Below, piece by piece: positions 5,089-48,126 of a stretch of 64,000 nucleotides of DNA. Made by a program: the position numbers and the translations under genes. The notes under the pieces were generated by a model. That model saw nothing but the letters and a program-made list of their open reading frames with translations. It was not told where the DNA came from and did not search any database. The stretch comes from an uncultured Candidatus Saccharibacteria bacterium (GTDB lineage: Bacteria; Patescibacteriota; Minisyncoccia; Phycocordibacterales; CAIZLB01): NCBI GenBank assembly GCA_964467385.1, contig CAYXQC010000002.1, positions 1,625 to 65,624 of the forward strand, written 5' to 3'. Each line of letters starts with the position of its first letter. Positions within the stretch are counted from its first letter, which is position 1.

Positions 5089-5748
5089 TTAGACCTTATG
5101 TTTGTTTTTAATATGTTGTACAAAAAACCAAATACCAGAAAGCATGATTGTACCAGCAAGAGTTAAGCCAATGGTCGAAACCACGAGAGAGGATTTTGAA
5201 TCGCCTATATATGAACCAATAAATACAAGCATGCCTGCAGCAATCGATGATGCGGGCCATAAAATAGAGATGAACTTCCAATACGGAAGTTTACTCAAAC
5301 CAGTTCCATAGGAAATAAGTTCCGGTAAAGCAAAGCAGGTCATGCACATATGTAGAAATCCTCTAGTAGTACTCACATGTTCAACAATCATAGAGAGCAA
5401 ACCTTTTTCATTTTGAGAAATCATACGTTCGATGAACGGCCGCCCAAATGTTCGACTCATTAGAAAAGCACAGGAATATCCAATAAAGTCACCAATAATC
5501 ACATATAGAAAACCTTTTTGAAATCCAAAGAAGACACCAGCGAGAGGATAAATAGGTGCACCAGAAAGCGGGGCGACAATAATCGTTGTAACTTTTGCCA
5601 GGATGATTACAAAAGGTGCCCAAACACCAGCACGCGCAACCATTTCTTTGAGTGAACTTAGGTCGAAAAAAGATACAGCGAGGATTATCAAAATAATAGT
5701 AATAATGCCACCGGAAAGCTGAATATTGTCTGTGAATTTTCTGAGCAT
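5089..5748 (-). CDS. DedA/TVP38 family membrane protein
   Basis: Multi-TM protein with the layout typical of the SNARE-associated/DedA fold. Confidence 0.7.
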   Translation of the reverse strand: MLRKFTDNIQLSGGIITIILIILAVSFFDLSSLKEMVARAGVWAPFVIILAKVTTIIVAPLSGAPIYPLAGVFFGFQKGFLYVIIGDFIGYSCAFLMSRTFGRPFIERMISQNEKGLLSMIVEHVSTTRGFLHMCMTCFALPELISYGTGLSKLPYWKFISILWPASSIAAGMLVFIGSYIGDSKSSLVVSTIGLTLAGTIMLSGIWFFVQHIKNKHKV

Positions 5749-5842
5749 GTTTTTGTGGTTTATAGGTATGATTACATTATACTAGACGTTTGAAATATTT
5801 GGAGGTATGAAAATAGAGGTTTTAAAATGCTAGAATAAGCCA

Positions 5843-6415
5843 ATGAAAGATTTTATCGCCATAATAGCCACGCTCCTCGCATTTATCGGAAACACTTCAT
5901 ATCTCAAAGATGTATTCAAAGGACGAATTCAACCACATCCATACACGTGGTTCATCTGGTCTATCGTTTCCATGACAACTTTTTTTGGAGGACTTGCAAA
6001 AGGTGCAGGCATTGGAGCACTTCCAACAGGTGTCGCCGAAGGGTTCACGATTGTTATTTTTCTGTTCTCACTCAAACATCTTTTTAGGGGGAAAGTTGGG
6101 CACATTCGAACAATAGACAACTATTTTCTTTTAATCTGCCTATTCGGACTTATCCCTTGGGTAATTACAAAAGATCCAACCATATCAGTCATTATCGTTG
6201 TATTGATAGATATAGTTGCCTTTATCCCGACACTTCGTAAAACATGGCAACATCCCAAAACCGAAAAACCAACTCTTTATGAAATGAATGTCGCACGACA
6301 CATACTGACGCTTTTTTCATTAAACACATATAATATCGCTACCACATTCCATTCGGTTGCGATGATATGCACCAATACGATCATGACGATTTTTATACAA
6401 CGTAAAAAGAAATAG
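5843..6415 (+). CDS. hypothetical integral membrane protein
   Basis: 190 aa with several TM helices. Confidence 0.45.
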   Translation: MKDFIAIIATLLAFIGNTSYLKDVFKGRIQPHPYTWFIWSIVSMTTFFGGLAKGAGIGALPTGVAEGFTIVIFLFSLKHLFRGKVGHIRTIDNYFLLICLFGLIPWVITKDPTISVIIVVLIDIVAFIPTLRKTWQHPKTEKPTLYEMNVARHILTLFSLNTYNIATTFHSVAMICTNTIMTIFIQRKKK

Positions 6416-6427
6416 TATAATAAGGGT

Positions 6428-6940
6428 ATGGCATACAATATTCATCCGTTATTTGTTCATTTTCCTATAGCATTCCTGCTTTTGTATTCTCTCTTGAAAA
6501 CACTTCCCTTTGAACGTCTGGTGCCGAGGTTTGCGTGGCGAGAAGTGCAACTCGTTGTACTAGTTTTTGGTGTACTTGGTGCAATAGTGGCAAGCGCTAC
6601 AGGAGAAATTTCTGAACACCTTATTCAACCAGATCGACAGATTGTTGAAATGCATTCATTATTTGCTGCTACCTCAACTTGGATATACGGACTACTTCTC
6701 CTTGGTGAACTGCTTACGCGCATGAATCCATGGATTACACGAAAGTTTCCTAGCATGGGTTTACCAAGACTCTTCCGTTTTCTTGAAAGTACCCTTACCA
6801 ATCGAGTGCTCTCTGTGGTTTTTGCTATAGTTGGTCTACTTACCATTTCGCTGATCGGTCTTCTGGGTGGCGTCATGGTATATGGGGCATCTGCAGATCC
6901 ACTTGTGCCAAGTATTTTAAAATTACTAGGGATTAAGTAG
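6428..6940 (+). CDS. DUF2231-like membrane protein
   Basis: N-terminal HPLFVHFPIAF motif and four TM segments. Confidence 0.5.
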   Translation: MAYNIHPLFVHFPIAFLLLYSLLKTLPFERLVPRFAWREVQLVVLVFGVLGAIVASATGEISEHLIQPDRQIVEMHSLFAATSTWIYGLLLLGELLTRMNPWITRKFPSMGLPRLFRFLESTLTNRVLSVVFAIVGLLTISLIGLLGGVMVYGASADPLVPSILKLLGIK

Positions 6941-7185
6941 AGGATTCTAAATGATTCCTTCCAGGGTGGTAAGTATAGGAATTTTGTTGTACCTGCTGAA
7001 AATACTCAAACCTAGATCAACACTTCCAATCGAATTCAGAATATATTTCCTGCCAGATAGCTATCGATCGCAGCTTTTATCTTCGGTACCATATTTTGAG
7101 GAAATGTTTCGAGTAAGGATAATTTTTCCATCTTTGATTAATAAGATATTTACAGTAGCTAGAAGTTGAAATCTTTCTATTTTTA

Positions 7186-7298
7186 GATTATATCAGTTCA
7201 ATTCTCTTTAGTCCTCACATAACAAAACCACCCTTTATTTACAAGGTGGTTTTGTATAAGTCGTTTTTCAGGGGTCACTGTCCGTCTTTTGTTATACC
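7186..7298. repeat. copy A of a ~110-bp structured intergenic repeat (conserved flanks + variable hairpin + extended -10-like TGATATAAT on minus strand)
   Basis: Aligns with 8226..8341 in three blocks: ttatatcagttc.att, a hairpin followed by ttttgtataag, and ggggtca.t.tcc. Confidence 0.75.
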
Positions 7299-7300
7299 CT

Positions 7301-8218
7301 CTAGATCCGAATCTCTTTAGCTGAAGCATATATTTGCCTAGTAGAATCTGCTCCGTTCTTGCTTTCTAGAAAAATCCTGCCGTGAGGAGCGTGGAGCGCG
7401 GCAAGCTCAATGGACTTCTTATATTTGTGAGCAAAGCTGTCAGTCTCGCCTGAAGGCATGTATACGTGAACTACCCTGATATGCTTCCCGAGTCTTGCAA
7501 ACCACTCTCCCAGAATGAAATCGGCCGCTTTCTCATCTTCTACGCCATGAAGTGCGTGGTTAATGTCAAAAGTCATGCCGACATGCTCAAGAACCTCTTC
7601 GGTGCCGATACCCAGTTCAGACGAGACCACTTCAGACACTGTAGAAATCAGCAGTTCCAATTCCTCAGGTGACTGACCCCACGCACCGTCGGACCCCTTC
7701 GTAGGCATATTCTCAATGGCAATCGAAAAGTCTGTCCCGTCATCGATTGATGCCTTGAGGCTTTGGGTAAAAAGCCGCGCGTAGTTTTCAACGACAGTTC
7801 TTCTGACTTCTTCAGGGGCATGTTCAAATACGCCGCTCGAAACATTCGGGGGATGAATTGTGTGAGATTCGCCGCCTAGGGAGCGCGTAAGCTCAAGTTC
7901 CTTTTTAATCCGCTCTCCGTTTGATATCTCAAGAGTCGAATGATCGATCTTCGGGGTTTCACCGTGCATTGAAATTGAGCTTTCGGCATTCTGCTCGCGG
8001 AAGCTTTTTAAACGATCAAGGGAGGACATTACCTCTTCGTCCGTTCTGTTCCTCAGATCAAATTGAACTGCGGGTAAATGCATCTCGTGAGCGAGACCAA
8101 CCTGCTGATCAAGCGGTGCGTTCTCAGCATCCTTCTGCCTCGTACACAGCACAAGACCTAGGCCATCCCTAAGCCTCTCTTTCCGCTCTGAGATATTGGC
8201 AAAACTCTCGTATTTCAT
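7301..8218 (-). CDS. xylose-isomerase-like TIM-barrel (sugar phosphate isomerase/epimerase family) protein; GC-rich, likely horizontally acquired
   Basis: 305 aa with IENMP and FDINHA motifs. GC is clearly higher than in the flanks. The ORF is bracketed by direct repeats A and B. Confidence 0.4.
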   Translation of the reverse strand: MKYESFANISERKERLRDGLGLVLCTRQKDAENAPLDQQVGLAHEMHLPAVQFDLRNRTDEEVMSSLDRLKSFREQNAESSISMHGETPKIDHSTLEISNGERIKKELELTRSLGGESHTIHPPNVSSGVFEHAPEEVRRTVVENYARLFTQSLKASIDDGTDFSIAIENMPTKGSDGAWGQSPEELELLISTVSEVVSSELGIGTEEVLEHVGMTFDINHALHGVEDEKAADFILGEWFARLGKHIRVVHVYMPSGETDSFAHKYKKSIELAALHAPHGRIFLESKNGADSTRQIYASAKEIRI

Positions 8219-8225
8219 ACTGTTG

Positions 8226-8341
8226 AATTATATCAGTTCGATTCCCGTTAGTCCCCTTTCAGCAAAAAGAGCCTTCGTTTCCGGGGCTCTTTTTGTATAA
8301 GCAACTTATCTTGGGGTCAGTATCCAAATTTAATTATACCT
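8226..8341. repeat. copy B of the ~110-bp structured repeat; minus-strand TGATATAAT 9 nt before the ATG of 7301..8218 (leaderless-type promoter)
   Basis: The stem differs from copy A (agagcc/ggctct here, accacc/ggtggt in A) but base pairing is kept, i.e. compensatory change. Confidence 0.75.
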
Positions 8342-8355
8342 ATAGATAAAGGCTA

Positions 8356-9507
8356 CTAATCTCTCCAATCAGTTTTACCCAAAGTCACATAATAGAAAGA
8401 TTTACGCACAATTATAGACAGCACGATCACAACCACAAAAAGCCAGAAACCTGAATCAGCATCCTCAGCCATAAAAATGAATGAGAGCAATAGACCAAGC
8501 GATAAGGTAAGCACATAGATAACCTTAGCCAACCTAAACCACGGCTTAGATTCGAGTGGATTTTGTTTTGTTATTACAGTTTTCGGTACTTCATTATTTG
8601 TAGTGCCGAAATCCATATATGTATCAGGGCTACCATAAAGATCTTCGGCAATTTTTGATCTCTTCTCACCGATGTCCTTTTCAGCGTTATTCGCCTCAGT
8701 GATCTGTCGAACAACCCTCTTCCCTTTGATTCCTAATTCGACACCTGAAACATTCTTTGAAATATCTCCATTATTTTCTATTACAAATGTAGGTAAAATC
8801 TCATCTAAATCGATATCTTCTGATACTGCATTTATTGCTTTTTGTCGGTATGGCAACAACTCTTTCGATAGATTCAACCATTTTGAAAATTGAACTTTCA
8901 AATGTTCAGCTGCTTCATTACCATCTTGGCTTTCCGAATAAATACCAAAATCTGTCTTGTTAAACAAATTTTCAAACGTCTGTATCAAAGCAGACATTAT
9001 CTCTTGTTTTGTTACAATATCAGATTCCATTTTGCTTCGATAAGCTTTTGTTATTTCAATAACATTTTTTGCTTTCGACACCCTGTCTGCGCTAGAAACA
9101 TCATTTTTTTCTACAATTTGATCAGTTAGATTTCTTGTTGCTGTAAAATAATAATTTTCTCCAGTCTTATTAAAGTGGTGTACTAAGTATGCACTCTGCC
9201 AGACAAAGTTTTTTTCTATCTCCTTCCCTAACTCAAACAGTTTATTTAGATTAGTCTGAAATTGATTAACTTTCTCCACCCTATTCCTTTTTTGATCAAA
9301 CTCTCTTTTTGAATCTTCCCCTAGAACTTTTTCAATTTGTTCATCAAAAGTAAAATATAATATTTTTCTAGCTTGTTCTTCGACTGTAAGTTCGTTGTCA
9401 GGTTTTTCGAAGTCGACTTCTTTTTTAATACTATCTTGTATGCGAACAATGTCAGCTATGCTGATATTATCTTTTGATTCATTGAGAGAGTCTTTATTTG
9501 AGGACAT
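8356..9507 (-). CDS. hypothetical protein, Lys/Glu-rich cytoplasmic domain with two C-terminal TM helices
   Basis: 383 aa ORF with no recognisable domain. Confidence 0.45.
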   Translation of the reverse strand: MSSNKDSLNESKDNISIADIVRIQDSIKKEVDFEKPDNELTVEEQARKILYFTFDEQIEKVLGEDSKREFDQKRNRVEKVNQFQTNLNKLFELGKEIEKNFVWQSAYLVHHFNKTGENYYFTATRNLTDQIVEKNDVSSADRVSKAKNVIEITKAYRSKMESDIVTKQEIMSALIQTFENLFNKTDFGIYSESQDGNEAAEHLKVQFSKWLNLSKELLPYRQKAINAVSEDIDLDEILPTFVIENNGDISKNVSGVELGIKGKRVVRQITEANNAEKDIGEKRSKIAEDLYGSPDTYMDFGTTNNEVPKTVITKQNPLESKPWFRLAKVIYVLTLSLGLLLSFIFMAEDADSGFWLFVVVIVLSIIVRKSFYYVTLGKTDWRD

Positions 9508-9692
9508 ATAATATTCATATCTGATAAGTAGTAATTAAATCAATTATCTAACACACAGACAAGTTTGTCTATTTATTACAGTCTTCGAAAAATGATAAAA
9601 ATCTCTAGAAATAGAGGTGGTGTTGATTTTATAAATGACCCATTACATGGTGCACGACTCACTAGTAAAGCTTACTCCTCGCACATATCAAT

Positions 9693-9775
9693 TGGCTGCT
9701 ATAAAAAAATTGACACGGGAGTGTCGTCTTTTTTATCAACTGATCAGGGTCACTGTCCATCTTTTGTCAGGCCAC
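9693..9775. repeat. diverged copy C of the repeat family (hairpin GACAC-GGGA-GTGTC + box GGGTCACTGTCCATCTTTTGT)
   Basis: Carries the box acaaaagatggacagtgaccc (minus sense) shared with copy A; lies just 3' of ORF 9796..10512. Confidence 0.6.
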
Positions 9776-9795
9776 GCTAACCTCCCAGAGAAACC

Positions 9796-10512
9796 CTAGC
9801 TTCTAAATGTTTTTCTATTTAACGCACGACTGTCATCATCCGGCAAAAAACGAAAATGCTCGCTGAAATATGGGTTTTTAGGATATCCGTCATGATTACT
9901 TAGCCTACCAATTAATGGTCTCATTATCCTTGCGGCATACATTACGTAATACTTGGAAGCGTGCTCAACTAGCTGGGTATGGACCGCTAAGTCACTAAGA
10001 CTATTTATCGCTGACAAATCTTCACGATTGTGAAGCACGTGTCCTAATTCATCAATATTGGGTGCAAGCCAAACTCTATGAGGAGGATGGGTTTCGAGAA
10101 TATCTTTTATAATAGTGCTGTAAAATTTTACAACAGGCTCATTTGCAAGCCGACGTTTATCTCCACGAGATAAGAAATCTACAATACTGTATCTATCACC
10201 TTCAGCAAAATCATTTAGAAAAGATATCAACTTAGCTTCGATACTATCGTCATTGAAATTAATTCCCAAGACATTAATCAAATCTTTTAGTTTATGTCCG
10301 TGTGTTTTAAGGTTAACCCCAGACTGCTCAACATTGAGTATTAATTTCATTAGTCTTTCTAATCCCATACTTAGAGCATAAAAGGACTGATAATAGTAGG
10401 CATGACTGGATGATATTTTACGGCTATTTTCAAGACCATTAGTAAGCAGTTCGGCAACAATTGACGCTTCTCTATTGAGTATCTTAAAACGCTCTGTTTT
10501 TAGCGGATCCAT
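9796..10512 (-). CDS. hypothetical protein
   Basis: 238 aa and mostly helical by composition; no confident domain. Confidence 0.45.
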   Translation of the reverse strand: MDPLKTERFKILNREASIVAELLTNGLENSRKISSSHAYYYQSFYALSMGLERLMKLILNVEQSGVNLKTHGHKLKDLINVLGINFNDDSIEAKLISFLNDFAEGDRYSIVDFLSRGDKRRLANEPVVKFYSTIIKDILETHPPHRVWLAPNIDELGHVLHNREDLSAINSLSDLAVHTQLVEHASKYYVMYAARIMRPLIGRLSNHDGYPKNPYFSEHFRFLPDDDSRALNRKTFRS

Positions 10513-10599
10513 ATTACTGAGAATTATATGCTCAACTTTTCTAAATAGCCAATAAAAACTAGCCCGACTGACAACTTATTTAAGTTTTTTTGACCACTA

Positions 10600-11283
10600 C
10601 TATTGGACTCTTATGACGGCCTTTACCTGTCCACATATTCTAAAACCAGTATCTTCATTATCAATTTCCTCATCTTCAAATTCAGCGTTCATTGATCTCA
10701 ATAAATACTTTGAAGAATCACCCAACTCAAATTTGACAATCTTTTTTATTTTAGGCATGCCTTCGTGGACAATAACTGCAACCTGGCCACTTTCAACATT
10801 TACCTGTTTCCGTGCTAAAACTAAATCACCCTCCTTAATCATTGGCTCCATTGAGGCACCTTTAGGTTTTATTAAAAAGTAATCTTTTGGATTTGTGATT
10901 CCGAATGTTTTAGAAGACAAAGGAACACGCTCCATTATTCGATCATCACCCAAAAAGCCATCTGGACCACATTGTGCAGTCGTTCGGTACAAATCAACAT
11001 ATACAACCTCGGATGCAGGGTTATCCAATACTTCAAAAATTCTTTTATCTGGCTGATATCTACGAAGAAAACCTTTATTCTCCAATTGTTCGAGATGGTG
11101 GGCTACCACTTGAGCCCTGTCTTCAATACCCATCTCAGTTCCTATCACTCTTAAGGAAAGCCCTTCTATATTTCCATTATGAGCCTTAATAACCTCTAGC
11201 AGTTTTCTCTGGTGAGGATGTAATTTCATATTGATTCTATTATGCCCTAGACAAGGCAGTATTGCAAATAATATTGTGGACAA
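10600..11283 (-). CDS. LexA/CI-like repressor, S24 peptidase family
   Basis: C-terminal GASMEPMIKEGDLV (Ser nucleophile) and PKIKKI (Lys), with an N-terminal winged-helix HTH. The real start is probably the internal MKLHPHQRKLLEV. Confidence 0.8.
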   Translation of the reverse strand: MSTILFAILPCLGHNRINMKLHPHQRKLLEVIKAHNGNIEGLSLRVIGTEMGIEDRAQVVAHHLEQLENKGFLRRYQPDKRIFEVLDNPASEVVYVDLYRTTAQCGPDGFLGDDRIMERVPLSSKTFGITNPKDYFLIKPKGASMEPMIKEGDLVLARKQVNVESGQVAVIVHEGMPKIKKIVKFELGDSSKYLLRSMNAEFEDEEIDNEDTGFRICGQVKAVIRVQ

Positions 11284-11370
11284 ATGCTATATCGTCCAGA
11301 AATACTTGACAAAGAATTTTAGAGGTATATTCTTGCAGTAACACGTTCCTGCGCTAAAAGCAAAAGCCTC

Positions 11371-11778
11371 GTGACAATATTAACAAATAAATACAAAACA
11401 ATGGGAGGAAAATCATCAGCATCAGGAAAAAGAATAAGAAAGGATAACGACAGTATTGAGTTGGTACCACTATCTCGAATGAATTCGTCAGGTGGAGGGT
11501 CTGGAACAAATAAATCAGACGAAAAACTTCAGCCTGTGTGCACACTGTCTTTTGAAACAGAACTGCCTCAGGAAAAGTCTTTACTTGCAGGTACCCCTCT
11601 CCTTCTCAAGGAAGAGGATGGTATATGGAAAATTACACACCAAGGAAAAGTTATTGCAAACCTCAAGAGAGCACGGTCTGCAATGTTGAAACACTGTCTT
11701 GAAGAAGGTTATCATTACAAAGGAAAGGTAAAAGTAAAAGAAGACACCAAATATGGAGAATTTCGAAGATCATCCTAG
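11371..11778 (+). CDS. hypothetical protein
   Basis: 135 aa, divergent from the repressor gene; overlaps the next ORF by 26 nt, suggesting an operon. Confidence 0.35.
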   Translation: MTILTNKYKTMGGKSSASGKRIRKDNDSIELVPLSRMNSSGGGSGTNKSDEKLQPVCTLSFETELPQEKSLLAGTPLLLKEEDGIWKITHQGKVIANLKRARSAMLKHCLEEGYHYKGKVKVKEDTKYGEFRRSS

Positions 11779-12838
11779 AACGCTGTCTTTTGCAAGCCTT
11801 GAGTGTAATGTCAACAATAAAGACTGGGAGCCATTTGTGTCTCCTACTGAAACCTCACAAATACAAGAAGTTTGCTCTGAGGAATCCGTCAATCACATCA
11901 GTTGTAAAAATCCAGATGTCGCTCTCTACATTGAAGACGTACAGGGTTTAGAACTTGATGTTAATTTTGATCAAACTCTTCTTCCAAAGCTACCCAAAAT
12001 GATTCATACTTTGGAAAAAAGCTTCATCTGGTCAGACCCATCAAATATCGAGGGTGACGCCATCAGTATCTCTTTGGGAGATATATTCACCAACCCTCCA
12101 AGAAAAGTTAGTGGTATATTGCGTGCTCCAAAAAGATTGAATTTAAATAAAAAAATACTTCAATCTCCAATGTTCCTGCAGAAAACTGTAATTTTAAACA
12201 TGTCTGCCCAAGACGTTTTAATAGAAAGCTTGTGGATGCAACAAAATAATATATCTATATATTCATCTCTGTACCAATTAGGTTTTAGGTTCGCAACAAC
12301 TCCAAACTTTTCAGTTTTTGCTGGCGAATGTCCGTTAGGACATAGGATAAACCAAAAGAAGAGTCTTGTTTTTGGAAAAGGATTACAAAAAGCTGGTATT
12401 ACAGCAATACCTCACGTATACATAATAAATGACAGTCACCTTGAAGCATACATCACATACTTAAAAAGATTTCCGACAATCAAAACAATTATAATGAACT
12501 GTACACTGCAACGAAAAAGCCCGCTCGAGATTCAACATGTACATAAGATTATTTCGAGATTGATTTTAGAAAGAAAAGATCTTCATATAATTCTGCAAGG
12601 TATAAACATTAAGGATGCAAGGTATTTTTGCGAGTTTGAAGAAAATTTACACTATATGGTTTCAACCGCACACTACAATGCTGTCGTACGAAATGAGAAC
12701 AAATACGGTAATGGAAAATTAGAAACGATCAGAGGTTCTTCTAAAAATAGAGGTGACTTGATAAAAGCAAATACTCATGCGTATGCGGAATTCATTGAAA
12801 ATGTCTGTGTCCCTATTTACCGAAACAATATAGGTTGA
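11753..12838 (+). CDS. hypothetical protein (island cargo)
   Basis: 361 aa, no recognised domain. Confidence 0.45.
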   Translation: MENFEDHPRTLSFASLECNVNNKDWEPFVSPTETSQIQEVCSEESVNHISCKNPDVALYIEDVQGLELDVNFDQTLLPKLPKMIHTLEKSFIWSDPSNIEGDAISISLGDIFTNPPRKVSGILRAPKRLNLNKKILQSPMFLQKTVILNMSAQDVLIESLWMQQNNISIYSSLYQLGFRFATTPNFSVFAGECPLGHRINQKKSLVFGKGLQKAGITAIPHVYIINDSHLEAYITYLKRFPTIKTIIMNCTLQRKSPLEIQHVHKIISRLILERKDLHIILQGINIKDARYFCEFEENLHYMVSTAHYNAVVRNENKYGNGKLETIRGSSKNRGDLIKANTHAYAEFIENVCVPIYRNNIG

Positions 12839-12848
12839 GCGGAAAACT

Positions 12849-13352
12849 CTACTTCAAAAAGTCCCACCTTCCTTTGTAATCTTCCGCTATCGGCATATCA
12901 AGCTTGTATTCACAGCCTTTTTTACCGAGCATGAAAGACCTCAACTTAGAATCATTACGAGTATCCTTTCCGCTCAACCAGTATTTGTGAGACTCCTGAA
13001 TGAACTTGGCTACAACCGCACTAGGCACGATATAGAAGTCAAAAGAGTGAGTGCTTTGCAGGATACTTACAAAGCAGTAGAAGAGGGTTGGATCATTAAT
13101 TGCTTCGTGTTTATCTCCCATTCTCCAATGAGCCTCTACATGACCAAAATCTGCAGATATATATGAATGGTTGTCGTAATGAGTCTTAACCTCAAGTTTG
13201 TACATGTTCTTCGTTTCAGGGTGCGAAAGGAGTATGTCTACACTTTTTGTATTTCCTAAGGTCATGTTTGCGTCGTACCCTCGAAGTGCGAGCTGGGACA
13301 GTACAGCAAACTCACCTGCAAGCCCTATTTGATTTTTAGATATGAATGACAT
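12849..13352 (-). CDS. PD-(D/E)xK nuclease-fold protein (Hjc/NERD-like)
   Basis: Motif string GLAGEFAVLSQLALRGY...VDILL...KLEVKT, which reads as a D...E-x-K arrangement. Confidence 0.45.
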   Translation of the reverse strand: MSFISKNQIGLAGEFAVLSQLALRGYDANMTLGNTKSVDILLSHPETKNMYKLEVKTHYDNHSYISADFGHVEAHWRMGDKHEAINDPTLFYCFVSILQSTHSFDFYIVPSAVVAKFIQESHKYWLSGKDTRNDSKLRSFMLGKKGCEYKLDMPIAEDYKGRWDFLK

Positions 13353-13386
13353 GGAGATATTTTATCATGCTCTAACACTTTTGAAT

Positions 13387-13965
13387 TTACCGCGTGCTTC
13401 CGTTCCAATACCTCGCATTTACTTCACCTTGGTTACAAATAACAACCGAATTATTAACTGTGTGAGTAATCGGGCTAAAAGCCGTACCATCATCGGTTGT
13501 AACCTTGGACCATGAGATTATTACTACCTGTCCAGCTTTAACATCAAATGGATTCCTTGTTCTAAATGGTGGTTTATTAAAATTCCATCCATTTCCACCA
13601 TTAACTCCCACCATGCAGTTACTCCAATCTGTGCTCTCAAGGTTTGTTATGTGAATTCCACTACCCCCAGTCTGAACGCGAACTTTTAAGTCGGAAGTAC
13701 TTGAATTTGAAGAAGGGACAGAAGAATGACTTGATGAGCCGGATTTTGAGCCTGAAGCTGAGAAGAGTCCTAAAAGCAGGAATGATCCAAATATTACAGC
13801 AAATGCTGTAAGGACAAGTCTTTTACTATCGTTCTTTGGTCGACTTCCATGTAAAGAGAAGCTCCTCATCGGTATTTTGATAGTTGATTGACAATAAGGA
13901 CACTTAGTCGCAAGCGCAGATATTTCCTTTATGCAAAATGGACACTTTTTCGTCTCTTCGTTCAT
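13387..13965 (-). CDS. zinc-ribbon (CPFC...CPYC) membrane protein with Ser-rich linker and extracytoplasmic domain
   Basis: N-terminal CxxC x2, one TM helix, then an SGSKSGSSSHSS linker. Confidence 0.5.
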   Translation of the reverse strand: MNEETKKCPFCIKEISALATKCPYCQSTIKIPMRSFSLHGSRPKNDSKRLVLTAFAVIFGSFLLLGLFSASGSKSGSSSHSSVPSSNSSTSDLKVRVQTGGSGIHITNLESTDWSNCMVGVNGGNGWNFNKPPFRTRNPFDVKAGQVVIISWSKVTTDDGTAFSPITHTVNNSVVICNQGEVNARYWNGSTR

Positions 13966-14240
13966 GGTTTTAAAATTTAGCGTTTAAAACCTAGAGTGTA
14001 GGAAACAGAAATCCTACCCCTAGGTGACCACGAGGGTCTGCGCCAGTTTCCCGATGCAACGCTGAATAACGTCCTAAGAGTAGGGTTTCTGTTATTCAGC
14101 GATTTTATGACCATACCTAGAGCCGAAGCAGTAGGGTTAGGTCGCCTATTTAGTTGTAGCTATACTTTACTGTATTTTAAGATAATAGTGAAGGATCTTA
14201 ATATACAGAGAAATTTAATATTGGTAATATTTAATTACCA

Positions 14241-15257
14241 ATGAATCAAAACACATATAAAAGTTTGGAAGATTTTATTAATGGTTTCAAAAGAGAATTT
14301 GGAAGCATCTATAATGATGAAATAAAACATATCAGAGCAATCAATATAAAGCCAAAAAGAAATGGCCTTTACTACCAAAGCCAGTTTCTGGATCTAACCA
14401 ATATACTTGAAAAAGAAAAGTCAAAGACGAGTAAATCAATGATTTTTATGAACATTGATGATGTTATTGCTGAAGAAATTCCAACACTAAATATTGAACC
14501 ATTAAAGAGCGCAGGGAGAAAAATGAGAATTGAAGCTAGTAATTTTTCGATTCTACTCTTAACAGATAAGTTTCAAGAGTTTACTAAACTTTCAAGAAAA
14601 CTACTGAATCTACCTGACGGGGGTTGCAAAGATATAGACGAGCGAGAAACTTATTTTAAGAAATGGGCGTCACACCTATTTCAAGTCAAAATTTTGAAAA
14701 CAGAACATGATATGGCAAGTACATACAAATTATTCAATCTTCCATTAAGATTATTTCTTTCTAGAAATTCTGACTTTGATCACAAAACTTTCGAACAACA
14801 ATTTATGTTGGAAAGAATGGCTTATGACTATATAACACTGGATAAACCTTTTTATTCAGCTGAACTTTTTAATGATAGAAACCAAGATTCTTGTGAACTG
14901 AGACTACCGTCATTAAAACCAGAAAAAATGTTTAATGCAGGAGTTGGGATTGGATTAGTTGCATACCACGAGACAACTAAAGCGGATCTGAAACTTCAAA
15001 TAGACAAAGTCTGGCCAACAATTGAAAATTACCTTAAAAGAACACCTGATAGACCAAAAGAGCAGAAAGAACCTGATCTTGATTCCATGAAAGATAGATG
15101 GACAGCTTACCAACTGCACAAATTACACAGAATGAACTATCAGAAAATTGCCACGATACTAGGAAAAAGCGTCTCTCATTGCCGTAAAATGGCTTCAGAC
15201 TTGAGCAAAGAAGTTAAAAAACTTACAAACAAAAACGCTACTACAAGCAAAAAATAA
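14241..15257 (+). CDS. hypothetical protein with C-terminal HTH (sigma-70 region-4/resolvase-like)
   Basis: 338 aa; the C-terminal stretch YQKIATILGKSVSHCRKMASDL looks like an HTH. Confidence 0.45.
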   Translation: MNQNTYKSLEDFINGFKREFGSIYNDEIKHIRAINIKPKRNGLYYQSQFLDLTNILEKEKSKTSKSMIFMNIDDVIAEEIPTLNIEPLKSAGRKMRIEASNFSILLLTDKFQEFTKLSRKLLNLPDGGCKDIDERETYFKKWASHLFQVKILKTEHDMASTYKLFNLPLRLFLSRNSDFDHKTFEQQFMLERMAYDYITLDKPFYSAELFNDRNQDSCELRLPSLKPEKMFNAGVGIGLVAYHETTKADLKLQIDKVWPTIENYLKRTPDRPKEQKEPDLDSMKDRWTAYQLHKLHRMNYQKIATILGKSVSHCRKMASDLSKEVKKLTNKNATTSKK

Positions 15258-15405
15258 ACTCTCACCAAAAATACTCCATCTTTTGTCATGATGCCCTCAT
15301 GGTATTTCCATACCATGATTATGTCTTCTAAATCCCCAATCGAAACAATAAATATAGCAACGGAAAAAGCAGTCGAACTGCTTGCGGATATTTTTATTGC
15401 GCTGA

Positions 15406-15726
15406 TTGACCACAAGCACAGGCAAAATCTTAATACTAAAAATAAAACGAATAATGAAAACGAAAATCCAACAAACGAATAATGAATTTATTCCAAAAGA
15501 AGATACGACCTACTATTGCACTAGCGATATTGGTCTTACTGCATATTTGATCTACAAGGACCACAAACTTTCCTGTATTCAATACAGCGATGAAAAGCTC
15601 ATTTTTATACTTGAAAGCAATATGTGCACCTATGACGACATCGAGATTTACAAAGGAGAAAAAGAACAGCAAGAAATAATTGACTATATTAAAAACATAA
15701 ACGCTATACATGCACATGCAGAATAA
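15406..15726 (+). CDS. small hypothetical protein
   Basis: 106 aa ORF directly upstream of, and overlapping, the AAA ATPase gene. Confidence 0.3.
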   Translation: MTTSTGKILILKIKRIMKTKIQQTNNEFIPKEDTTYYCTSDIGLTAYLIYKDHKLSCIQYSDEKLIFILESNMCTYDDIEIYKGEKEQQEIIDYIKNINAIHAHAE

Positions 15727-16822
15727 CCCTGATGACAACACTGTAAAACCTATGGAAAAGTTAGTAGGTGAACTTACAGATAATCTAGTTGATACAGACT
15801 CAAGAAACACGGCAATAATCGACTATAAACTTACGTCCTTGAAAGAACTTATGGAAACCGAGTTTGACGCAATTCAATGGGTAGTAGACAGACTTATCCC
15901 CGCTTCAGGTTTAATTGCTTTGTCGGGGGCACCTGCCTCATACAAGACGTGGTTAGTTCTAGATATGGCACAGAAAATTGCTTCTGGTACCCCTTTGTTT
16001 AATAGATTCCAAACAAAGCAGACAGGTGTTCTTTTGGTAGACGAAGAAAATGGTGACCGACTACTTCAAATAAGATTCAAAAAGATTGGAGATAGATTTG
16101 ATTTGCCTATTTATACACTTTCATTTAAATACTTCAAACTAACAAATGACAATGTGAAGAAAATAATACGAGTCGCCAAGAAAAAAGAAATCGGACTGAT
16201 TATATTTGATTCTCTGGTTCGAATTCACGAAGAGGATGAGAACAGTGCAATAGCAATGGCTAGCGTCTTCAGCCTACTACGAAAAATTACAAATGAAGGA
16301 ATAACCGTCATATTCACCCACCACCATAGAAAGAAAGGAAATAATCAGTCTGGTGGATCACAGGAAATGAGAGGATCTTCAGATATCTTAGCTTCTCTAG
16401 ATTGTCACCTGTCAGTAGATAGCGAAAAGGGAGAAAACTCTGTTAAGGTTACTCAGAACAAATCTCGTTATGCGGAAGAAATTGGCAGTTTCACCTTAAA
16501 TGTTATCAAAGACGGAGAGAATTTAAGTTTTGAAATTGATGGAGATATTGAAGAACAGCAAAGTAACAAATCAATCGTTGAAGAAGCTATTGTACACGCA
16601 CTTGCTCTCAATACCGAGCTTTGCAAGACAGACATCCTGAGACTACTGAAACAGGACGGTATAAAAGTCGGAAACTCAACACTTCTAAACACAATAAAAA
16701 GAATGGTAAAGAAAGGTGTCATACAAGAGAAACAAGGAGAGAAGAATACAACTTTATGTTCATTGGTAAAGCCCGAAGAATCACAGCCAAAACAGTCAGT
16801 TAAAAATACCAACACTATATAG
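15710..16822 (+). CDS. RepA-like AAA_25/RecA-fold ATPase with C-terminal winged helix (mobile-element replication/primase-helicase loader type)
   Basis: Degenerate Walker A SGAPASYKT, Walker B LLVDEE, and a C-terminal wHTH-like region. Confidence 0.65.
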   Translation: MHMQNNPDDNTVKPMEKLVGELTDNLVDTDSRNTAIIDYKLTSLKELMETEFDAIQWVVDRLIPASGLIALSGAPASYKTWLVLDMAQKIASGTPLFNRFQTKQTGVLLVDEENGDRLLQIRFKKIGDRFDLPIYTLSFKYFKLTNDNVKKIIRVAKKKEIGLIIFDSLVRIHEEDENSAIAMASVFSLLRKITNEGITVIFTHHHRKKGNNQSGGSQEMRGSSDILASLDCHLSVDSEKGENSVKVTQNKSRYAEEIGSFTLNVIKDGENLSFEIDGDIEEQQSNKSIVEEAIVHALALNTELCKTDILRLLKQDGIKVGNSTLLNTIKRMVKKGVIQEKQGEKNTTLCSLVKPEESQPKQSVKNTNTI

Positions 16823-16946
16823 GGGAGAATTTTAACTCACTCATATACAAAGGGGGTGCATAACCTCTGTTGGTTTAAGTGTGCCTTGAAAGGACGCTTA
16901 AAGAGAAAGGTTACTTAATTATAAGTCAGTAAAAAACATTAAATAT

Positions 16947-18551
16947 ATGAAAAATAAAAATATTGGATTGGCATACTGCCGAGTTTCTACAGAGGATCAG
17001 ACAGATGGTATCTCACTCGACTATCAAGAACAGGAGTGTAAAAAAGCCGCCTACGCAGACGGGTACACAGATGTAATAGTTATTAGAGACGAAGGAAAAA
17101 GTGGTAAAGATCTATTTAGAAAAGGAATACAAGAAGTGATTGAACTAGCAAAGAAAAGAGAGTTCTCAACTATGTATGTTACCAACTCGGACCGCCTTGC
17201 TCGTAGCGTAGAGGCTCACGCTTTTGTTAGAACCATACTTAAAAATAATGATGTAAAACTCAAATACTTAAACGGTCAATCTTCAGGAGAAGATGCCAGT
17301 TCTATATTGACCGATAACATGTTTGCAACTATTAACCAGTTTTACAGTGATACAACCCGAGAGAAAACGATTCAAGCAGTAGACACAAAAGCACGAGCAG
17401 GCTACTTCCCTGCCAATGTACCCGCAGGATATATGAACGTAGAAAACCCAGACAAGAACTGTGAGAAAGTTGCGAAGAGAATTATTGTTCCACACCCAAA
17501 GACTGCCCATCTTGTAACGGAAGCTTTTAAGTTATATGCAACAGGTCAGTACAATGTATTTCAGTTAAATGATATGTTACACGACAAAGGCTTAGTGAGT
17601 AGTTCGGGTAAAAAATTAGTCCCTGCCATGTTCTATAAGATGCTCAAGAACAGACTGTATCTTGGAGAAATTCATTGGAGAGACATACACGTAAAAGGAA
17701 AGCATCAACCACTTATTGATGAAGCAACTTTTGATCAGGTACAGAAAATTGCAAACAACAATACAAACGGACGTTGCCGAAGACGTAAGTATAAGTGGCT
17801 TCTGAACGGGTATATCTTCTGCCCTATTCACAATAGAAAATTTACTGCAGAGTGGCACTTAGGAAAGCGTATTGCTTACTACCACTGTACTAATCCAGGA
17901 GGATGCGGAAAATATATTGAGAAGTCCAACTTAGAAGGACAAGTTGCAGACAAGTTTAGACTACTAGAATTTAGTGACGACTTTGTAGAATCAATCGTTG
18001 CAAAGGTTAAACAGGTTTATCAAGACAGGAAAGATAATTATCAATCTGAATACAGAGGTCTATTAAACAAAAGAAATGCATGTGAGATTAAGATTAGATC
18101 TGCTGAAGATAGATTAGTTGACGGATCACTTAGTAGCGAAGCCTGTAAAAGAATCACGGACGACATGAGAACATCTATTTCTAAAGTAGATTCACAGATA
18201 AACAAACTGCAAACTGTGCAGGATATAAACATAGACGTATTAGGCGAAATTCTGGCGTTTACGAAGAATTTATACAAAACATATATTCAGGCACCGGAAG
18301 ACTATCAAAAGCACATGATTGGATGTTTCTTTGATGGTTTTGAAGTAAAGGATGGAGTTATAATAAAAGAGCGATTGACCCCACTATTTCAGGTTTTATT
18401 GGATGCAAATACCATGTTTATGAAAGGTGTCAAAAACAAAATATCCCCTGAAATAAAGGGATATTCTGAAGTTATAATAACTAATTTAATGGGTGCCCAG
18501 AGAGGATCGAACTCTCGTAACCGGATCCACAGACCGGGGCTTTACCACTAA
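16947..18551 (+). CDS. large serine recombinase (integrase)
   Basis: N-terminal resolvase domain YCRVSTEDQ...SLDYQ, a recombinase domain, and a zinc ribbon (CPIHNRKF...HCTNPGGCGKY). The last ~60 nt are antisense to tRNA-His. Confidence 0.85.
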   Translation: MKNKNIGLAYCRVSTEDQTDGISLDYQEQECKKAAYADGYTDVIVIRDEGKSGKDLFRKGIQEVIELAKKREFSTMYVTNSDRLARSVEAHAFVRTILKNNDVKLKYLNGQSSGEDASSILTDNMFATINQFYSDTTREKTIQAVDTKARAGYFPANVPAGYMNVENPDKNCEKVAKRIIVPHPKTAHLVTEAFKLYATGQYNVFQLNDMLHDKGLVSSSGKKLVPAMFYKMLKNRLYLGEIHWRDIHVKGKHQPLIDEATFDQVQKIANNNTNGRCRRRKYKWLLNGYIFCPIHNRKFTAEWHLGKRIAYYHCTNPGGCGKYIEKSNLEGQVADKFRLLEFSDDFVESIVAKVKQVYQDRKDNYQSEYRGLLNKRNACEIKIRSAEDRLVDGSLSSEACKRITDDMRTSISKVDSQINKLQTVQDINIDVLGEILAFTKNLYKTYIQAPEDYQKHMIGCFFDGFEVKDGVIIKERLTPLFQVLLDANTMFMKGVKNKISPEIKGYSEVIITNLMGAQRGSNSRNRIHRPGLYH

Positions 18552-18563
18552 GCTATGGGCACC
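18490..18563 (-). tRNA. tRNA-His (anticodon GTG) with encoded G-1
   Basis: Cloverleaf read by hand: G-1 + GTGCCCA, D-arm GCTT/AAGC, anticodon loop CTGTGGA, T-arm GAGAG-TTCGATC-CTCTC, acceptor TGGGCAC + C73. Position 31:39 is a T:T. Confidence 0.8.
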
Positions 18564-18637
18564 ATATGTATGCGCCGAGGCGCAATTTACGCCAAGAAAA
18601 TACTGAGCGTGCACACAGTTATATCAGATAAATGCAC

Positions 18638-19504
18638 TTATTTCAACCAAGACTTATCAGCAAGTGAACCAGCAATTTCTACAAAGGGGATCTTTACATT
18701 CATTTCACCAAAAACATATGGAGCGACCTGATATGGACTAAATGCCCAGCGAATGAAACCATCCTCAACATAAAATACACTAAAATTTTCAGCCGTTGGC
18801 GCAGTACCTGTCGGCTCAAATATATCATCAACTGTCTGTTTTTCCGATCCCGAATCACCGGTCTGTTTAACTGAGTCCAGATATGACTGCAAATTTTTTT
18901 TCACTTTTACGGTGGCAACCTCAGAAATTTTCTTAAGCGGAGCTGGATCATTTTTACTTAAAATAGAATCAAGAGAGATCAATTCCCCACTCTGTGTTAT
19001 GAAGTTCATAACCACTTTGTATGAGAGAGGGTGTGCAGCGCCAGAGTAATATGAACCGACCGAAATCTCTATGTAAAATGTTTTATCAGTTACTGCAACA
19101 GGCTGTCCGGCTTCAATACTCAATTGATGTTTCTGATCTTCAGAAATTAATTTCACACCTGAAACATCAGCAATAAATGCCTCTTGAATTTCAAAAATCT
19201 TTTCGCGAACTTGTTCATTGACTGCTTTGTTGAGTGTTGATGATAAGCCAGTTACATCATGTCCACTAATTTGAATGGTGTACGTACTTTTCTCAATTGT
19301 GTTTGTGTACTCAGTTGAATTTATAGGCTCAGCAGATTTTAACAGAGAAACATTTTCCCCTTGCCTTATAAAAGTATCCTCTGGAGACTTTTTGAAAAAT
19401 GAGATGCAGAGATCAATACAGATAAAAACAATAACTATTAGTAGTAGAATTTTGAGGGTCTTTTTCATAGATATATTGTAGCACCGTCGATACAAGTCGC
19501 CCAT
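18638..19504 (-). CDS. secreted/membrane-anchored DUF4163/DUF3298 (RsiV-like) domain protein
   Basis: Signal/TM MKKTLKILLLIVIVF, then a YYSGAAHP motif. Confidence 0.45.
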   Translation of the reverse strand: MGDLYRRCYNISMKKTLKILLLIVIVFICIDLCISFFKKSPEDTFIRQGENVSLLKSAEPINSTEYTNTIEKSTYTIQISGHDVTGLSSTLNKAVNEQVREKIFEIQEAFIADVSGVKLISEDQKHQLSIEAGQPVAVTDKTFYIEISVGSYYSGAAHPLSYKVVMNFITQSGELISLDSILSKNDPAPLKKISEVATVKVKKNLQSYLDSVKQTGDSGSEKQTVDDIFEPTGTAPTAENFSVFYVEDGFIRWAFSPYQVAPYVFGEMNVKIPFVEIAGSLADKSWLK

Positions 19505-19540: not shown

Positions 19541-19619
19541 TCGTGTGCGCAGGAGAGGACTTGAACCTCCATGCCCTTGCGGGCGCTACCACCTCAAGGT
19601 AGTACGTCTACCAGTTTCG
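19535..19619 (-). tRNA. tRNA-Leu (anticodon GAG), type II with long variable arm
   Basis: Acceptor GCGCAGG/CCTGCGC, anticodon stem CTACC/GGTAG with loop TTGAGGT, and variable arm CGCCCGCAAGGGCAT. Confidence 0.85.
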
Positions 19620-19737
19620 CCACCTGCGCATGTAGACGACATACTACCTAATATTTCGTTTATTTTCAACTTCTTAACGCAAACACCACCCCGCAAGGAG
19701 TGGTGTTTTTACTTATCTTTTTGAACCGAGGAGAAAT

Positions 19738-22661: not shown

Positions 22662-22737
22662 GGGAGATTAGCTCAGTTGGTAGAGCAACTCATTTACACT
22701 GAGAAGGTCACAGGTTCGAGTCCTGTATCTCCCACCA
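22662..22737 (+). tRNA. tRNA-Val (anticodon TAC), CCA encoded
   Basis: GGGAGAT-TA-GCTC-AGTTGGTA-GAGC, anticodon loop TTTACAC, T-arm ACAGG-TTCGAGT-CCTGT, then ATCTCCC-A-CCA. Confidence 0.9.
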
Positions 22738-22740
22738 AAT

Positions 22741-22775
22741 AAAATAGTCCAACTTCTGTTGGGCTATTTTATTTC
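22741..22775 (+). terminator. terminator hairpin after tRNA-Val
   Basis: aatagtccaac-ttctg-ttgggctatt followed by a T-run. Confidence 0.6.
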
Positions 22776-22887: not shown

Positions 22888-22908
22888 CGAGTCCTGTATC
22901 TCCCACCA
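22888..22908 (+). repeat. 21-nt exact direct repeat of tRNA-Val 3' end (cgagtcctgtatctcccacca), att-like scar
   Basis: Identical to 22717..22737. A GC-rich non-coding fragment lies between the two copies. Confidence 0.8.
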
Positions 22909-22910
22909 TA

Positions 22911-22947
22911 AAAGAAAAGTCCCTTTAGACAGGGACTTTTCTTTTAT
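22911..22947 (+). terminator. terminator hairpin after the duplicated tRNA end
   Basis: aaaagtccctttagacagggactttt followed by a T-run. Confidence 0.6.
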
Positions 22948-27430: not shown

Positions 27431-27505
27431 TGGTGCCCCCGGTTGGAATCGAACCAACATTGACGGCTTAGAAGTCCGCAGTTCTATCCATTGAACTACA
27501 GGGGC
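27431..27505 (-). tRNA. tRNA-Arg (anticodon TCT), CCA encoded
   Basis: GCCCCTG-TA-GTTC-AATGGATA-GAAC, anticodon loop CTTCTAA, T-arm GTTGG-TTCGATT-CCAAC. Position 31:39 is A:G. Confidence 0.75.
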
Positions 27506-31207: not shown

Positions 31208-31292
31208 GGAGGAGTCGCATAGTGGTTTAGTGCACCCGTCTTGAAAACGGGAGTGCCGCAAGGTACCGCGAGTTCGAATCTCGCCTCCTCCG
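31208..31292 (+). tRNA. tRNA-Ser (anticodon TGA), type II
   Basis: GGAGGAG acceptor, anticodon stem CCCGT/ACGGG with loop CTTGAAA, long variable arm, T-arm GCGAG-TTCGAAT-CTCGC, discriminator G. Confidence 0.85.
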
Positions 31293-31365
31293 CATTGACA
31301 ACCTGTTAGTAACGTGTTCTCATGTGCCTGACGTTTCAGTGCGACTCACGTGCCTACATGTTGTA

Positions 31366-48008: not shown

Positions 48009-48080
48009 GCTCTCGTCGTTCAATGGATAGGACGTAACTTTGCGGAAGTTATGATACAGGTTCGATTCCTGTCGAGAGCA
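48009..48080 (+). tRNA. tRNA-Arg (anticodon read as GCG; unusual, verify)
   Basis: GCTCTCG-TC-GTTC-AATGGATA-GGAC, anticodon stem TAACT/AGTTA with loop TTGCGGA, T-arm ACAGG-TTCGATT-CCTGT, then CGAGAGC-A. Confidence 0.7.
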
Positions 48081-48126
48081 CAAGTATCGCGAAATTCAAA
48101 CTGCTTTGGATTTCGCGATACTTGTG
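48079..48126 (+). terminator. 17-bp perfect inverted repeat (cacaagtatcgcgaaat / atttcgcgatacttgtg) directly after tRNA-Arg
   Basis: Perfect 17-bp stem with a 14-nt loop. Confidence 0.55.

Follow-up and report, generated by a model that had tools for sequence, protein, structure and literature searches.

The tRNA-His gene on contig CAYXQC010000002.1 of an uncultured Candidatus Saccharibacteria bacterium (assembly GCA_964467385.1) is overlapped in antisense by the 3′ end of a large serine recombinase gene. This raises the question of whether a mobile element has integrated here and, if so, where it begins and ends and to whom the tRNA belongs. We analysed a stretch of 64,000 nucleotides (nt) of this contig (positions 1,625 to 65,624, hereafter the window, whose numbering is used throughout). 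We put the probability at about 0.85 that positions 8318-18494 of the window are an integrative mobile element of a Patescibacteria host, inserted by its own serine integrase at the 3′ end of tRNA-His. The element is genuine and has been mobile recently, and its mechanism of integration is well supported; its regulation, replication, excision control and transfer are what we infer from its genes.

The boundaries were fixed by an empty site. Contigs with junctions were found via the DUF3298 protein of the right flank (18638-19504), of which a 100% identical copy (P0121) sits on several public contigs; fetched loci and contigs carry L-numbers here. L090, a Logan assembly contig of 1608 nt from SRR10036059, a sister sample, matches the window at 100% from 19581 to 18491 and then, again at 100%, from 8317 to 7797. 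Both matches overlap by the four nucleotides GGGT (positions 1088-1091 of L090), which stand in the window at 8314-8317 and at 18491-18494. The tRNA-His gene on L090 is complete, identical to that of the window and joined to the left flank at GGGT. The right occupied junction was found in L088, L089 and L091 and the left one in L094, contigs that come from sister samples and assemblies; the presence/absence polymorphism between these contigs and the empty L090 is precise at the attachment (att) junctions, and the flanks are 100% identical between the alleles. In assembly GCA_013558375.1, contig L093 begins exactly at 8317 and the element contig L001 covers 8191-18603; such breaks at the junction are the behaviour expected of an assembly graph when both alleles are present. 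The element is thus 10,177 bp long, and 8318-18494 and 8314-18490 are equivalent ways of giving its limits. Beyond its right end the DNA belongs to the host, since the order of tRNA-His, tRNA-Leu(gag), rplS and a presumed trmD is common to the window, L002, L011, L014, L084 and L086. An earlier note on this DNA, made from the sequence alone, had drawn the element from 9796 to 18563, which stops 1.5 kb short of the left end and thus leaves out a gene (8356-9507). The check which that note proposed, to look for a tRNA-His without the segment, was answered by L090.

Because the empty allele carries the identical full tRNA, the body of tRNA-His lies outside the element, with at most four shared bases. 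The earlier note had taken most of the tRNA to be provided by the element; the reverse is the case, the host tRNA supplying the end of the open reading frame (ORF) of the integrase. A crossover deep in the tRNA (around nt 14), with the 3′ two-thirds of tRNA-His coming from the element, would fit the overlap of the integrase ORF with tRNA nt 12-72 and the habit of tyrosine-integrase islands at tRNAs, which do supply a tRNA fragment (PMC4383910). However, this model leaves the identical full tRNA at the GGGT junction of the empty allele unexplained, and no fragment of tRNA-His is repeated in window positions 1-30000; it is refuted by L090 and we give it next to no chance. Searches for direct and inverted repeats in the same 30,000 positions revealed no displaced tRNA-His fragment, no long att repeat and no repeat of at least 14 nt. 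The absence of long repeats is consistent with a 4-bp core and agrees with the remark in the earlier note that serine integrases usually leave none. Two other junction candidates were rejected: Logan contig ends inside the tRNA (L083, L085) were discarded as markers because tRNA k-mers are common to strains, and a crossover about 35-110 nt upstream of the tRNA, hinted at by an aberrant integrase tail and a remnant in L086, was dropped as L090 fixes the junction.

The attB site observed in L090 reads …cttatcttg-GGGT-gcccagagaggatcgaac…, and the attP site was reconstructed as …gaagttataataactaatttaat-GGGT-cagtatccaaatttaattatacc… (junction sequences …AACTTATCTTGGGGTGCCCAGAGAGG… for attB and …AACTAATTTAATGGGTCAGTATCCAAATTT… for attP). 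Identity between the two is confined to the 4 bp GGGT, as expected for a serine integrase. TATAAT-type motifs, mirrored between the P arm and the P′ arm, lie at a distance of 12-15 nt from the core. In a junction alignment of the window, L082, L084 and L086 the P-arm motif GTTATAWTAR is kept at the integrase 3′ ends, and it is also visible in further relatives. A P′ arm much like that of the window adjoins host murB in L084 (759-790), giving an element of 10.8 kb there, and two P′-like arms are present in L082. According to the junction comparison, an attP overlapping the last codons of the integrase itself recombined with an attB made up of the tRNA-His 3′ end and the spacer before the tRNA terminator. 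Strand exchange falls within GGGT (tRNA nt 71-74), duplicating no tRNA fragment and leaving the tRNA body host-encoded.

The recombinase itself is, by its domains and conserved residues, a large serine integrase predicted to catalyse attP x attB recombination. It has a Resolvase domain (PF00239, E 7.5e-26) and a Recombinase domain (PF07508, E 1.2e-11), and residues C292, H295, C314 and C320 are invariant across homologues despite a Zn_ribbon_recom match below the Pfam threshold (19 vs 25.3 bits). The catalytic motif is YCRVSTEDQ, with R12 and S14 invariant in 40 homologues. Further matches were obtained to a PHROG integrase family (E 3e-67), to the N-terminal domain of TP901-1 integrase (E 3.6e-8) and, over residues 229-395, to the C-terminal domain of A118 integrase. 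These Pfam and PHROG matches, those to the repressor and ATPase described below, and the junctions uphold the earlier note in its view of the segment as an integrative element, inserted site-specifically, that carries a large serine recombinase, a RepA-like ATPase and an S24 repressor of LexA/CI type.

The overlap between integrase and tRNA, put at about 60 nt in the earlier note, measures 61 nt in antisense, with the stop codon taa at 18549-18551 and tRNA-His nt 12-72 covered by the ORF; the C-terminal residues GAQRGSNSRNRIHRPGLYH are the translated complement of tRNA-His. According to the junction mapping the element can encode the integrase up to Gly515 (GGT, 18492-18494), and the final 19 codons and the stop (18495-18551) are host tRNA-His in antisense. 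The tail of the ORF is therefore a read-through across attR into host tRNA sequence. As the region is identical in four independent contigs (L001, L088, L089, L091), it is no frameshift or assembly artefact. The integrated form has 534 amino acids (aa) and ends in …NLMG-AQRGSNSRNRIHRPGLYH, and for the circular form a protein of 529 aa is predicted, ending in …NLMG-QYPNLIIPIDKGY with 13 other codons in the tail. We consider this change from a free tail of 13 codons to 19 codons of tRNA antisense an incidental result of the position of attP. By analogy with integration-dependent immunity, the swap might instead be functional, writing the integration state into the integrase and altering its stability or directionality. 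An attP inside the integrase 3′ end and a stop taken from the partner arm are kept across a deep clade, and the predicted free-form tails are alike (QYPNLIIPI in the window, LCRNFVIPII in a 540-aa recombinase of L082). This likeness can, however, just as well be put down to the P′ arm being conserved for DNA binding, and at tRNA-His sites the integrated-form tails overlap the tRNA by 10 to 64 nt and have no conserved sequence, so that a functional swap appears improbable to us.

The insertion changes the 3′ surroundings of the tRNA (tRNA positions were numbered by hand, with the Rfam end as discriminator base). In the empty allele the encoded tRNA ends in …C72-C73-C74-C75-A76, and a hairpin with U-run (8264-8294) lies about 20 nt beyond it. 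In the occupied allele the end reads …C73-C74-A-U, with the encoded C75-A76 replaced and the encoded CCA lost, and the host terminator is displaced by 10 kb. Only two of the seven tRNA genes of the window have an encoded CCA; since most lack it, the host must add CCA enzymatically, and the loss should therefore be tolerated. A hairpin on the tRNA strand (18437-18468), 23 nt past the tRNA 3′ end and within the integrase coding region, may serve as a replacement terminator.

Is this an isolated case? We found 418 integrase homologues, and every named one belongs to Patescibacteria, Minisyncoccia or Yanofskybacteria. Many end in antisense translations of the tRNA T-arm, e.g. LGAYRDSNPN or RGQDSNLEPSP. 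Among related loci, fetched from one genome per species, a minus-strand tRNA abuts the integrase 3′ end in most Patescibacteria loci (His, Asn, Lys, Leu, Gly, Ala, Arg, Glu), and in 21 of 24 the integrase reading frame reaches its stop codon inside the tRNA gene or past it (His, Asn, Leu, Gly, Ala, Arg, Glu). A scan of GTDB genomes returned distant relatives alone (≤44% identity) with no cargo in common, and a scan of IMG/VR with the integrase alignment returned no relatives. A backbone of repressor, divergent operon, LOOT RNA, helix-turn-helix (HTH) protein, RepA-like helicase and integrase is conserved in the relatives L082, L084 and L086. The closely related L082 shares 60% identity in the integrase, 71% in the repressor, 45% and 68% in the two operon genes, 38% in the DUF5659-like protein and 58% in the helicase. 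L084 shares 47% in the helicase and 48% in the PD-(D/E)xK-like protein, and has two cytosine methylases and an HNH protein where the window has the repressor module. This family of elements is widespread in Patescibacteria and undescribed.

Some of these loci have additional features at the insertion site. In L086, 3.8 kb of zinc-ribbon and trypsin-like genes (7064-10970) separate an intact integrase with an aberrant tail (5573-7153) from a decayed 65-codon remnant of an integrase C-terminus abutting tRNA-His (10919-11136), the whole being better read as a relic or tandem arrangement. L082 carries a second serine recombinase of another clade (33-1655, 540 aa, 21% identical) that runs through GGGT (1619-1622) into a P′-like arm, with a second, near-identical arm 547 nt further on (GGGT 2166-2169), so that different elements appear to stand in tandem at tRNA-His. 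Duplicated att arms were also seen in L021. These relic and tandem copies point to repeated use of the insertion site. In L003 (11580-11764, minus strand) and L005 (11579-11854, minus strand) a group I intron (RF00028) lies directly past the integrase 3′ end, where other loci have the tRNA, and in L005 the integrase tail, …NWLRG, looks as if a tRNA 3′ end began there; an intron probably interrupts the tRNA targeted in these two loci, so that ARAGORN missed it.

Several points weigh against our reading of 8318-18494 as an integrative mobile element inserted by its own integrase. No circular (attP) junction was seen, and a scan of JGI metagenomes with a degenerate attP pattern gave 11 hits, none of them adjoining an integrase. 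L090 could represent a lineage that the element never entered and not a product of excision, so that present mobility is deduced from the alleles. Searches of the element yielded neither a recombination directionality factor nor a relaxase, nor any gene for a capsid or for packaging. It is homology and gene position that suggest replication by the helicase module, SOS control and the role of LOOT. Finally, of the relatives tested, only L082 has the hairpin of the putative replacement terminator, and there it is weak. A now-immobile island, with the polymorphism reflecting one past insertion that segregates in the population, would account for presence/absence alleles being seen and a circular form not. 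We regard this as unlikely, as no ORF of the element is disrupted, the alleles have 100% identical flanks, and relic or tandem copies occur at the same site in L082, L086 and L021.

The genes of the integrative element give an indication of how it might be controlled. Its repressor is predicted to be of the self-cleaving LexA/CI type, with matches to Peptidase_S24 (PF00717, E 2.9e-18) and LexA_DNA_bind (PF01726, E 1.6e-6) that are both above the Pfam cut-offs, a GASMEP serine motif and a downstream lysine. It scores 63 bits against the NCBIfam LexA equivalog (cut-off 111) and is, on sequence comparison, not the orthologue of host LexA. In the intergenic region 11230-11400 the palindrome and promoter blocks are conserved with L082; the palindrome and TTGACA-16-TATTCT are probably the operator and promoter of the rightward operon. 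The earlier note named this divergent operon (11371..12838), together with the nuclease, as the likeliest place for an accessory function such as defence or exclusion. We instead assign it to the backbone as an early operon, because it is conserved with the repressor in L082 and its TIM-barrel gene is again found beside another stress-type repressor in L095-L097. In these loci the homologues (L095 1711-2739, L096 3053-4144, L097 3804-4895) are divergent from an XRE-HTH and M78 peptidase (ImmR/ImmA) repressor module, and in L096 and L097 the TIM-barrel gene comes after one for a protein of about 123 aa. Mobile elements of several kinds therefore seem to carry the TIM-barrel gene as an early function induced by stress. 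The operon may provide a stress-induced early function, such as a directionality factor or a DNA-modifying enzyme, and not defence cargo.

The TIM-barrel protein of 361 aa is rare, with only 11 homologues found, and its fold may be of the TGT/DpdA type (tRNA-guanine or DNA transglycosylase). Its AlphaFold2 (AF2) model (predicted template-modelling score, pTM, 0.83) is a TIM barrel whose PDB matches are TIM barrels too, with tRNA-guanine transglycosylase as best PDB match (template-modelling score, TM, 0.48) and phage 'queuine tRNA-ribosyltransferase' models as top BFVD matches (TM 0.43-0.47), all TM being below 0.5, and its conserved cysteines are N-terminal and not at the C-terminal zinc site of the transglycosylase. 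The protein fails the gathering score of DUF4417 (PF14386; 14 vs 28.9 bits), and sub-threshold DUF4417 matches were obtained for nine of the 11 family members (best E 1e-3), so that it appears to be at most a distant relative of this domain. DUF4417 is a domain of unknown function that is enriched in phages (bioRxiv 10.1101/2025.10.10.680097).

To the right of the LOOT RNA, the 338-aa HTH protein heads the operon that ends in the integrase and may be an initiator or regulator. It has 12 representatives among 1.84 billion proteins, its AF2 model (pTM 0.62) has a PDB match limited to the C-terminal HTH, and its positional analogues in L082, L084 and L086 are not detectably homologous. The AAA_25 protein of the same operon matches RSF1010 RepA (1g8y, E 3.4e-5) and is, as judged by homology, a RepA-family ATPase of the RecA fold, predicted to be a helicase. 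The two left-end genes, for which the relatives have no counterparts, are the real variable cargo. For the 383-aa protein no Pfam, PHROG or PADLOC family and no homologue in related loci was found, and the 238-aa protein had no Pfam match. The PD-(D/E)xK fold that the earlier note assigned to 12849..13352 does receive a PDDEXK_5 match, but at a sub-threshold E of 0.015. Taken as a mechanism, the self-cleaving repressor would hold down the divergent early operon (125-aa and TIM-barrel proteins) via the palindromic operator, and stress would derepress it. The element would then excise, for which a directionality factor would be needed, and replicate in a plasmid-like manner via the module of LOOT RNA, HTH protein, small protein and RepA-like helicase. 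The left end and middle would hold variable cargo (HEPN-like, membrane, PD-(D/E)xK-like and zinc-ribbon proteins).

The LOOT RNA, which the earlier note had missed, occupies 14026-14143, in the divergent region ahead of the 338-aa gene. It is present in 12 of 23 loci (window counted), always upstream of the operon ending in the integrase, and its helices show compensatory changes at 24 of 28 predicted pairs among the 12 element copies. A role as leader of one gene family was rejected, as the genes on its 3′ side are unrelated from one element to the next. Rfam lists LOOT as a family based on metagenomes (PMC7779021), and we found no functional study of it in the literature. A pattern scan of IMG/VR gave five more copies, two beside other serine integrases (L098, L099) and three on tailed-phage contigs (L100-L102) with genes for an SU10-type major capsid protein, a P22-like portal, a large terminase and an amidase. 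Phages and capsid-less elements thus have this mobile-element RNA in common, and it could act in replication control, in regulation of the integrase operon or as a link between helper and satellite.

Could the element then be a phage satellite or the remnant of a temperate phage, which would depend on a helper phage for transfer and share LOOT with it? The occurrence of LOOT on phage contigs and beside other serine integrases, the phage-style layout of repressor and early operon, and a size of 10 kb with no transfer genes of its own, which is typical of satellites, would all fit. On the other hand, besides LOOT and a distant integrase nothing is common to the element and those phage contigs, relatives of its integrase were not found in IMG/VR, and the element was not found to have a capsid, a small terminase subunit or a packaging signal. 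We therefore consider this origin rather unlikely. The 11 element proteins include no capsid, portal, terminase, tail or lysis genes in Pfam and PHROG searches, and no relaxase, coupling protein or type IV secretion system was detected with Pfam and NCBIfam, several ORFs having no assignment. The phage-plasmid-like character suggested in the earlier note finds no backing here, with capsid, portal and terminase lacking in Pfam and PHROGs and the integrase lacking relatives in IMG/VR. There is, in our view, a low chance that the elements form a Patescibacteria-wide, capsid-less class at tRNA 3′ ends whose members are satellites using LOOT for replication or packaging by a helper phage, with LOOT as a packaging or replication-control RNA.

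Compared with known systems, the integrative element at tRNA-His combines familiar traits in a different way. Its integrase shares with the phage serine integrases (A118, TP901-1, phiC31, Bxb1) the resolvase, recombinase and zinc-ribbon architecture and short att sites with few identical crossover bases and no long direct repeats. Unlike these, which target a protein-coding gene, it targets the extreme 3′ end of a tRNA, its attP overlaps its own stop region so that the ORF end is exchanged by recombination, and its carrier is a 10-kb element without capsid genes. SCCmec (Ccr) likewise uses a serine recombinase to insert into a conserved housekeeping gene at its 3′ end, carries its own helicase to replicate once excised and forms tandem or composite arrays, but differs in its target, the protein gene rlmH, its often two Ccr proteins, its Staphylococcus host and its longer att core. 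Mycobacteriophage BPs and SSV1-type integrases also have attP within a coding sequence, such that integration alters a protein C-terminus; these are, however, tyrosine integrases, and BPs alters its repressor with a demonstrated degradation tag, whereas here the integrase would be the altered protein. Islander-class islands with tyrosine integrases share the tRNA 3′ end as landing site and the integrase gene adjoining the tRNA, but carry a tRNA fragment and leave the displaced copy as a direct repeat, whereas in the window 4 bp are shared and nothing is duplicated. The tycheposons of Prochlorococcus are similarly small, lie beside tRNA genes and contain a site-specific integrase, autonomous-replication genes (helicase, primase) and cargo. 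They differ in phylum and mostly have tyrosine recombinases with partial tRNA repeats, a large serine recombinase being present in 27 of 937; neither a LOOT RNA nor a LexA-controlled TIM-barrel operon is reported in that study (bioRxiv 10.1101/2020.12.28.424599). What distinguishes the present element is a serine integrase acting at the extreme tRNA 3′ end via a 4-bp core, an attP over the integrase stop region, and a backbone that includes an orphan structured RNA.

In the 2014 reference work on tRNA islands, tRNA ends were not known as a target class for serine integrases. Our results provide a mapped set of attB, attP, attL and attR for a serine integrase landing on the last bases of a tRNA gene, and the tRNA-targeting habit is common to a deep integrase clade in Patescibacteria, whose mobile elements are barely described. 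With short att sites in a universally conserved gene, such integrases are candidate genetic tools for organisms so far without them. LOOT, hitherto seen in metagenomes only, gains a genomic home in integrative elements and phages, which makes its function testable, and a rare TIM-barrel protein is flagged by its consistent placement under stress-type repressors.

Table 1. Features of the element, its attachment sites and the LOOT copies (window coordinates unless an L-number is given).
Feature	Position	Strand	Basis
Host intrinsic terminator, hairpin and U-run	8264..8294	-	fold -17.9 kcal/mol, z -3.0; terminator scan
attL core GGGT	8314..8317	.	4-nt identity with attR; contains crossover dinucleotide; L090 mapping, L093 start
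P′ arm cagtatccaaatttaattatacctatag	8318..8345	.	also predicted free-form integrase tail; conserved in L084 predicted attL and two L082 copies
383-aa protein, hydrophobic C-terminus, cargo	8356..9507	-	ORF; inside element
238-aa cargo protein, weakly HEPN-like	9796..10512	-	PADLOC CARF_HEPN_mCpol E 5e-4, residues 35-109; R-x5-H motif RKISSSH
Predicted LexA/CI-type S24 repressor, N-terminal winged HTH and S24 protease domain	10600..11229 (ORF to 11283)	-	Pfam, PHROG transcriptional repressor
Probable operator palindrome TGGACA-N10-TGTCCA (11277-11298) and sigma-70-like promoter TTGACA (11306) -16- TATTCT (to 11333) of rightward operon	11277..11333	+	promoter and hairpin scan
125-aa protein, operon gene 1	11401..11778	+	gene call in L001; 45% identical in L082
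361-aa TIM-barrel protein, operon gene 2	11753..12838	+	AF2, PDB, BFVD, DUF4417 comparisons
167-aa protein, possible PD-(D/E)xK nuclease	12849..13352	-	PDDEXK_5 E 0.015, sub-threshold; 48% identical homologue in L084
192-aa zinc-ribbon protein with membrane segment	13387..13965	-	ORF; weak zinc-ribbon matches
LOOT RNA (Rfam RF03000)	14026..14143	-	63.5 bits vs gathering 46.4; model positions 1-121, full length
338-aa all-helical protein, C-terminal sigma-70 region-4-like HTH	14241..15257	+	AF2, PDB, weak sigma matches
90-aa protein, weakly DUF5659-like	15454..15726	+	gene call; DUF5659 E 0.0016 sub-threshold; 38% identical in L082
Predicted RepA/DnaB-type (AAA_25) helicase, 370 aa, C-terminal winged HTH	15710..16822	+	AAA_25 (PF13481) E 2.4e-29; PHROG primase and helicase families
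Large serine recombinase (integrase), 534 aa	16947..18551	+	Pfam, PHROG, structure matches, junction mapping
Hairpin of 13 bp and U-run, putative replacement terminator	18437..18468	-	terminator scan; fold -16.1 kcal/mol, z -3.5
P arm	18462..18490	.	inside integrase 3′ end; family motif GTTATAATAA at 18472-18481
attR core GGGT	18491..18494	.	complement of tRNA-His A71-C72-C73-C74
tRNA-His(gtg) including G-1, host gene and integration target	18491..18563	-	ARAGORN 18491-18562, Rfam 18492-18562, G-1 at 18563
LOOT copy, related locus	L002 6943-7060		
LOOT copy, related locus	L003 8226-8347		
LOOT copy, related locus	L004 1-120		
LOOT copy, related locus	L005 7345-7462		
LOOT copy, related locus	L008 7207-7322		
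LOOT copy, related locus	L011 7969-8088		
LOOT copy, related locus	L015 8136-8258		
LOOT copy, related locus	L021 6985-7101		
LOOT copy, related locus	L082 7335-7456		
LOOT copy, related locus	L084 7641-7752		
LOOT copy, related locus	L086 2957-3071		
LOOT beside other serine integrase	L098 5001-5120		IMG/VR contig
LOOT beside other serine integrase	L099 2016-2132		IMG/VR contig
LOOT in tailed-phage contig	L100 3685-3809		IMG/VR contig
LOOT in tailed-phage contig	L101 7961-8085		IMG/VR contig
LOOT in tailed-phage contig	L102 2928-3050		IMG/VR contig

The tRNA genes near tRNA-His (Leu-gag at 19545-19629, Val-tac at 22662-22737, Arg-tct at 27431-27505, Ser-tga at 31208-31293 and Arg-gcg at 48009-48081) are, together with rplS and the presumed trmD, syntenic in set and order with several genomes labelled as Saccharibacteria, which suggests a host in or close to that group. 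The 3′ end of tRNA-Val(tac) (22717-22742) is repeated with 92% identity at 22888-22913, 171 nt downstream, which looks like the att scar of another insertion or remnant, of the tyrosine-integrase type.

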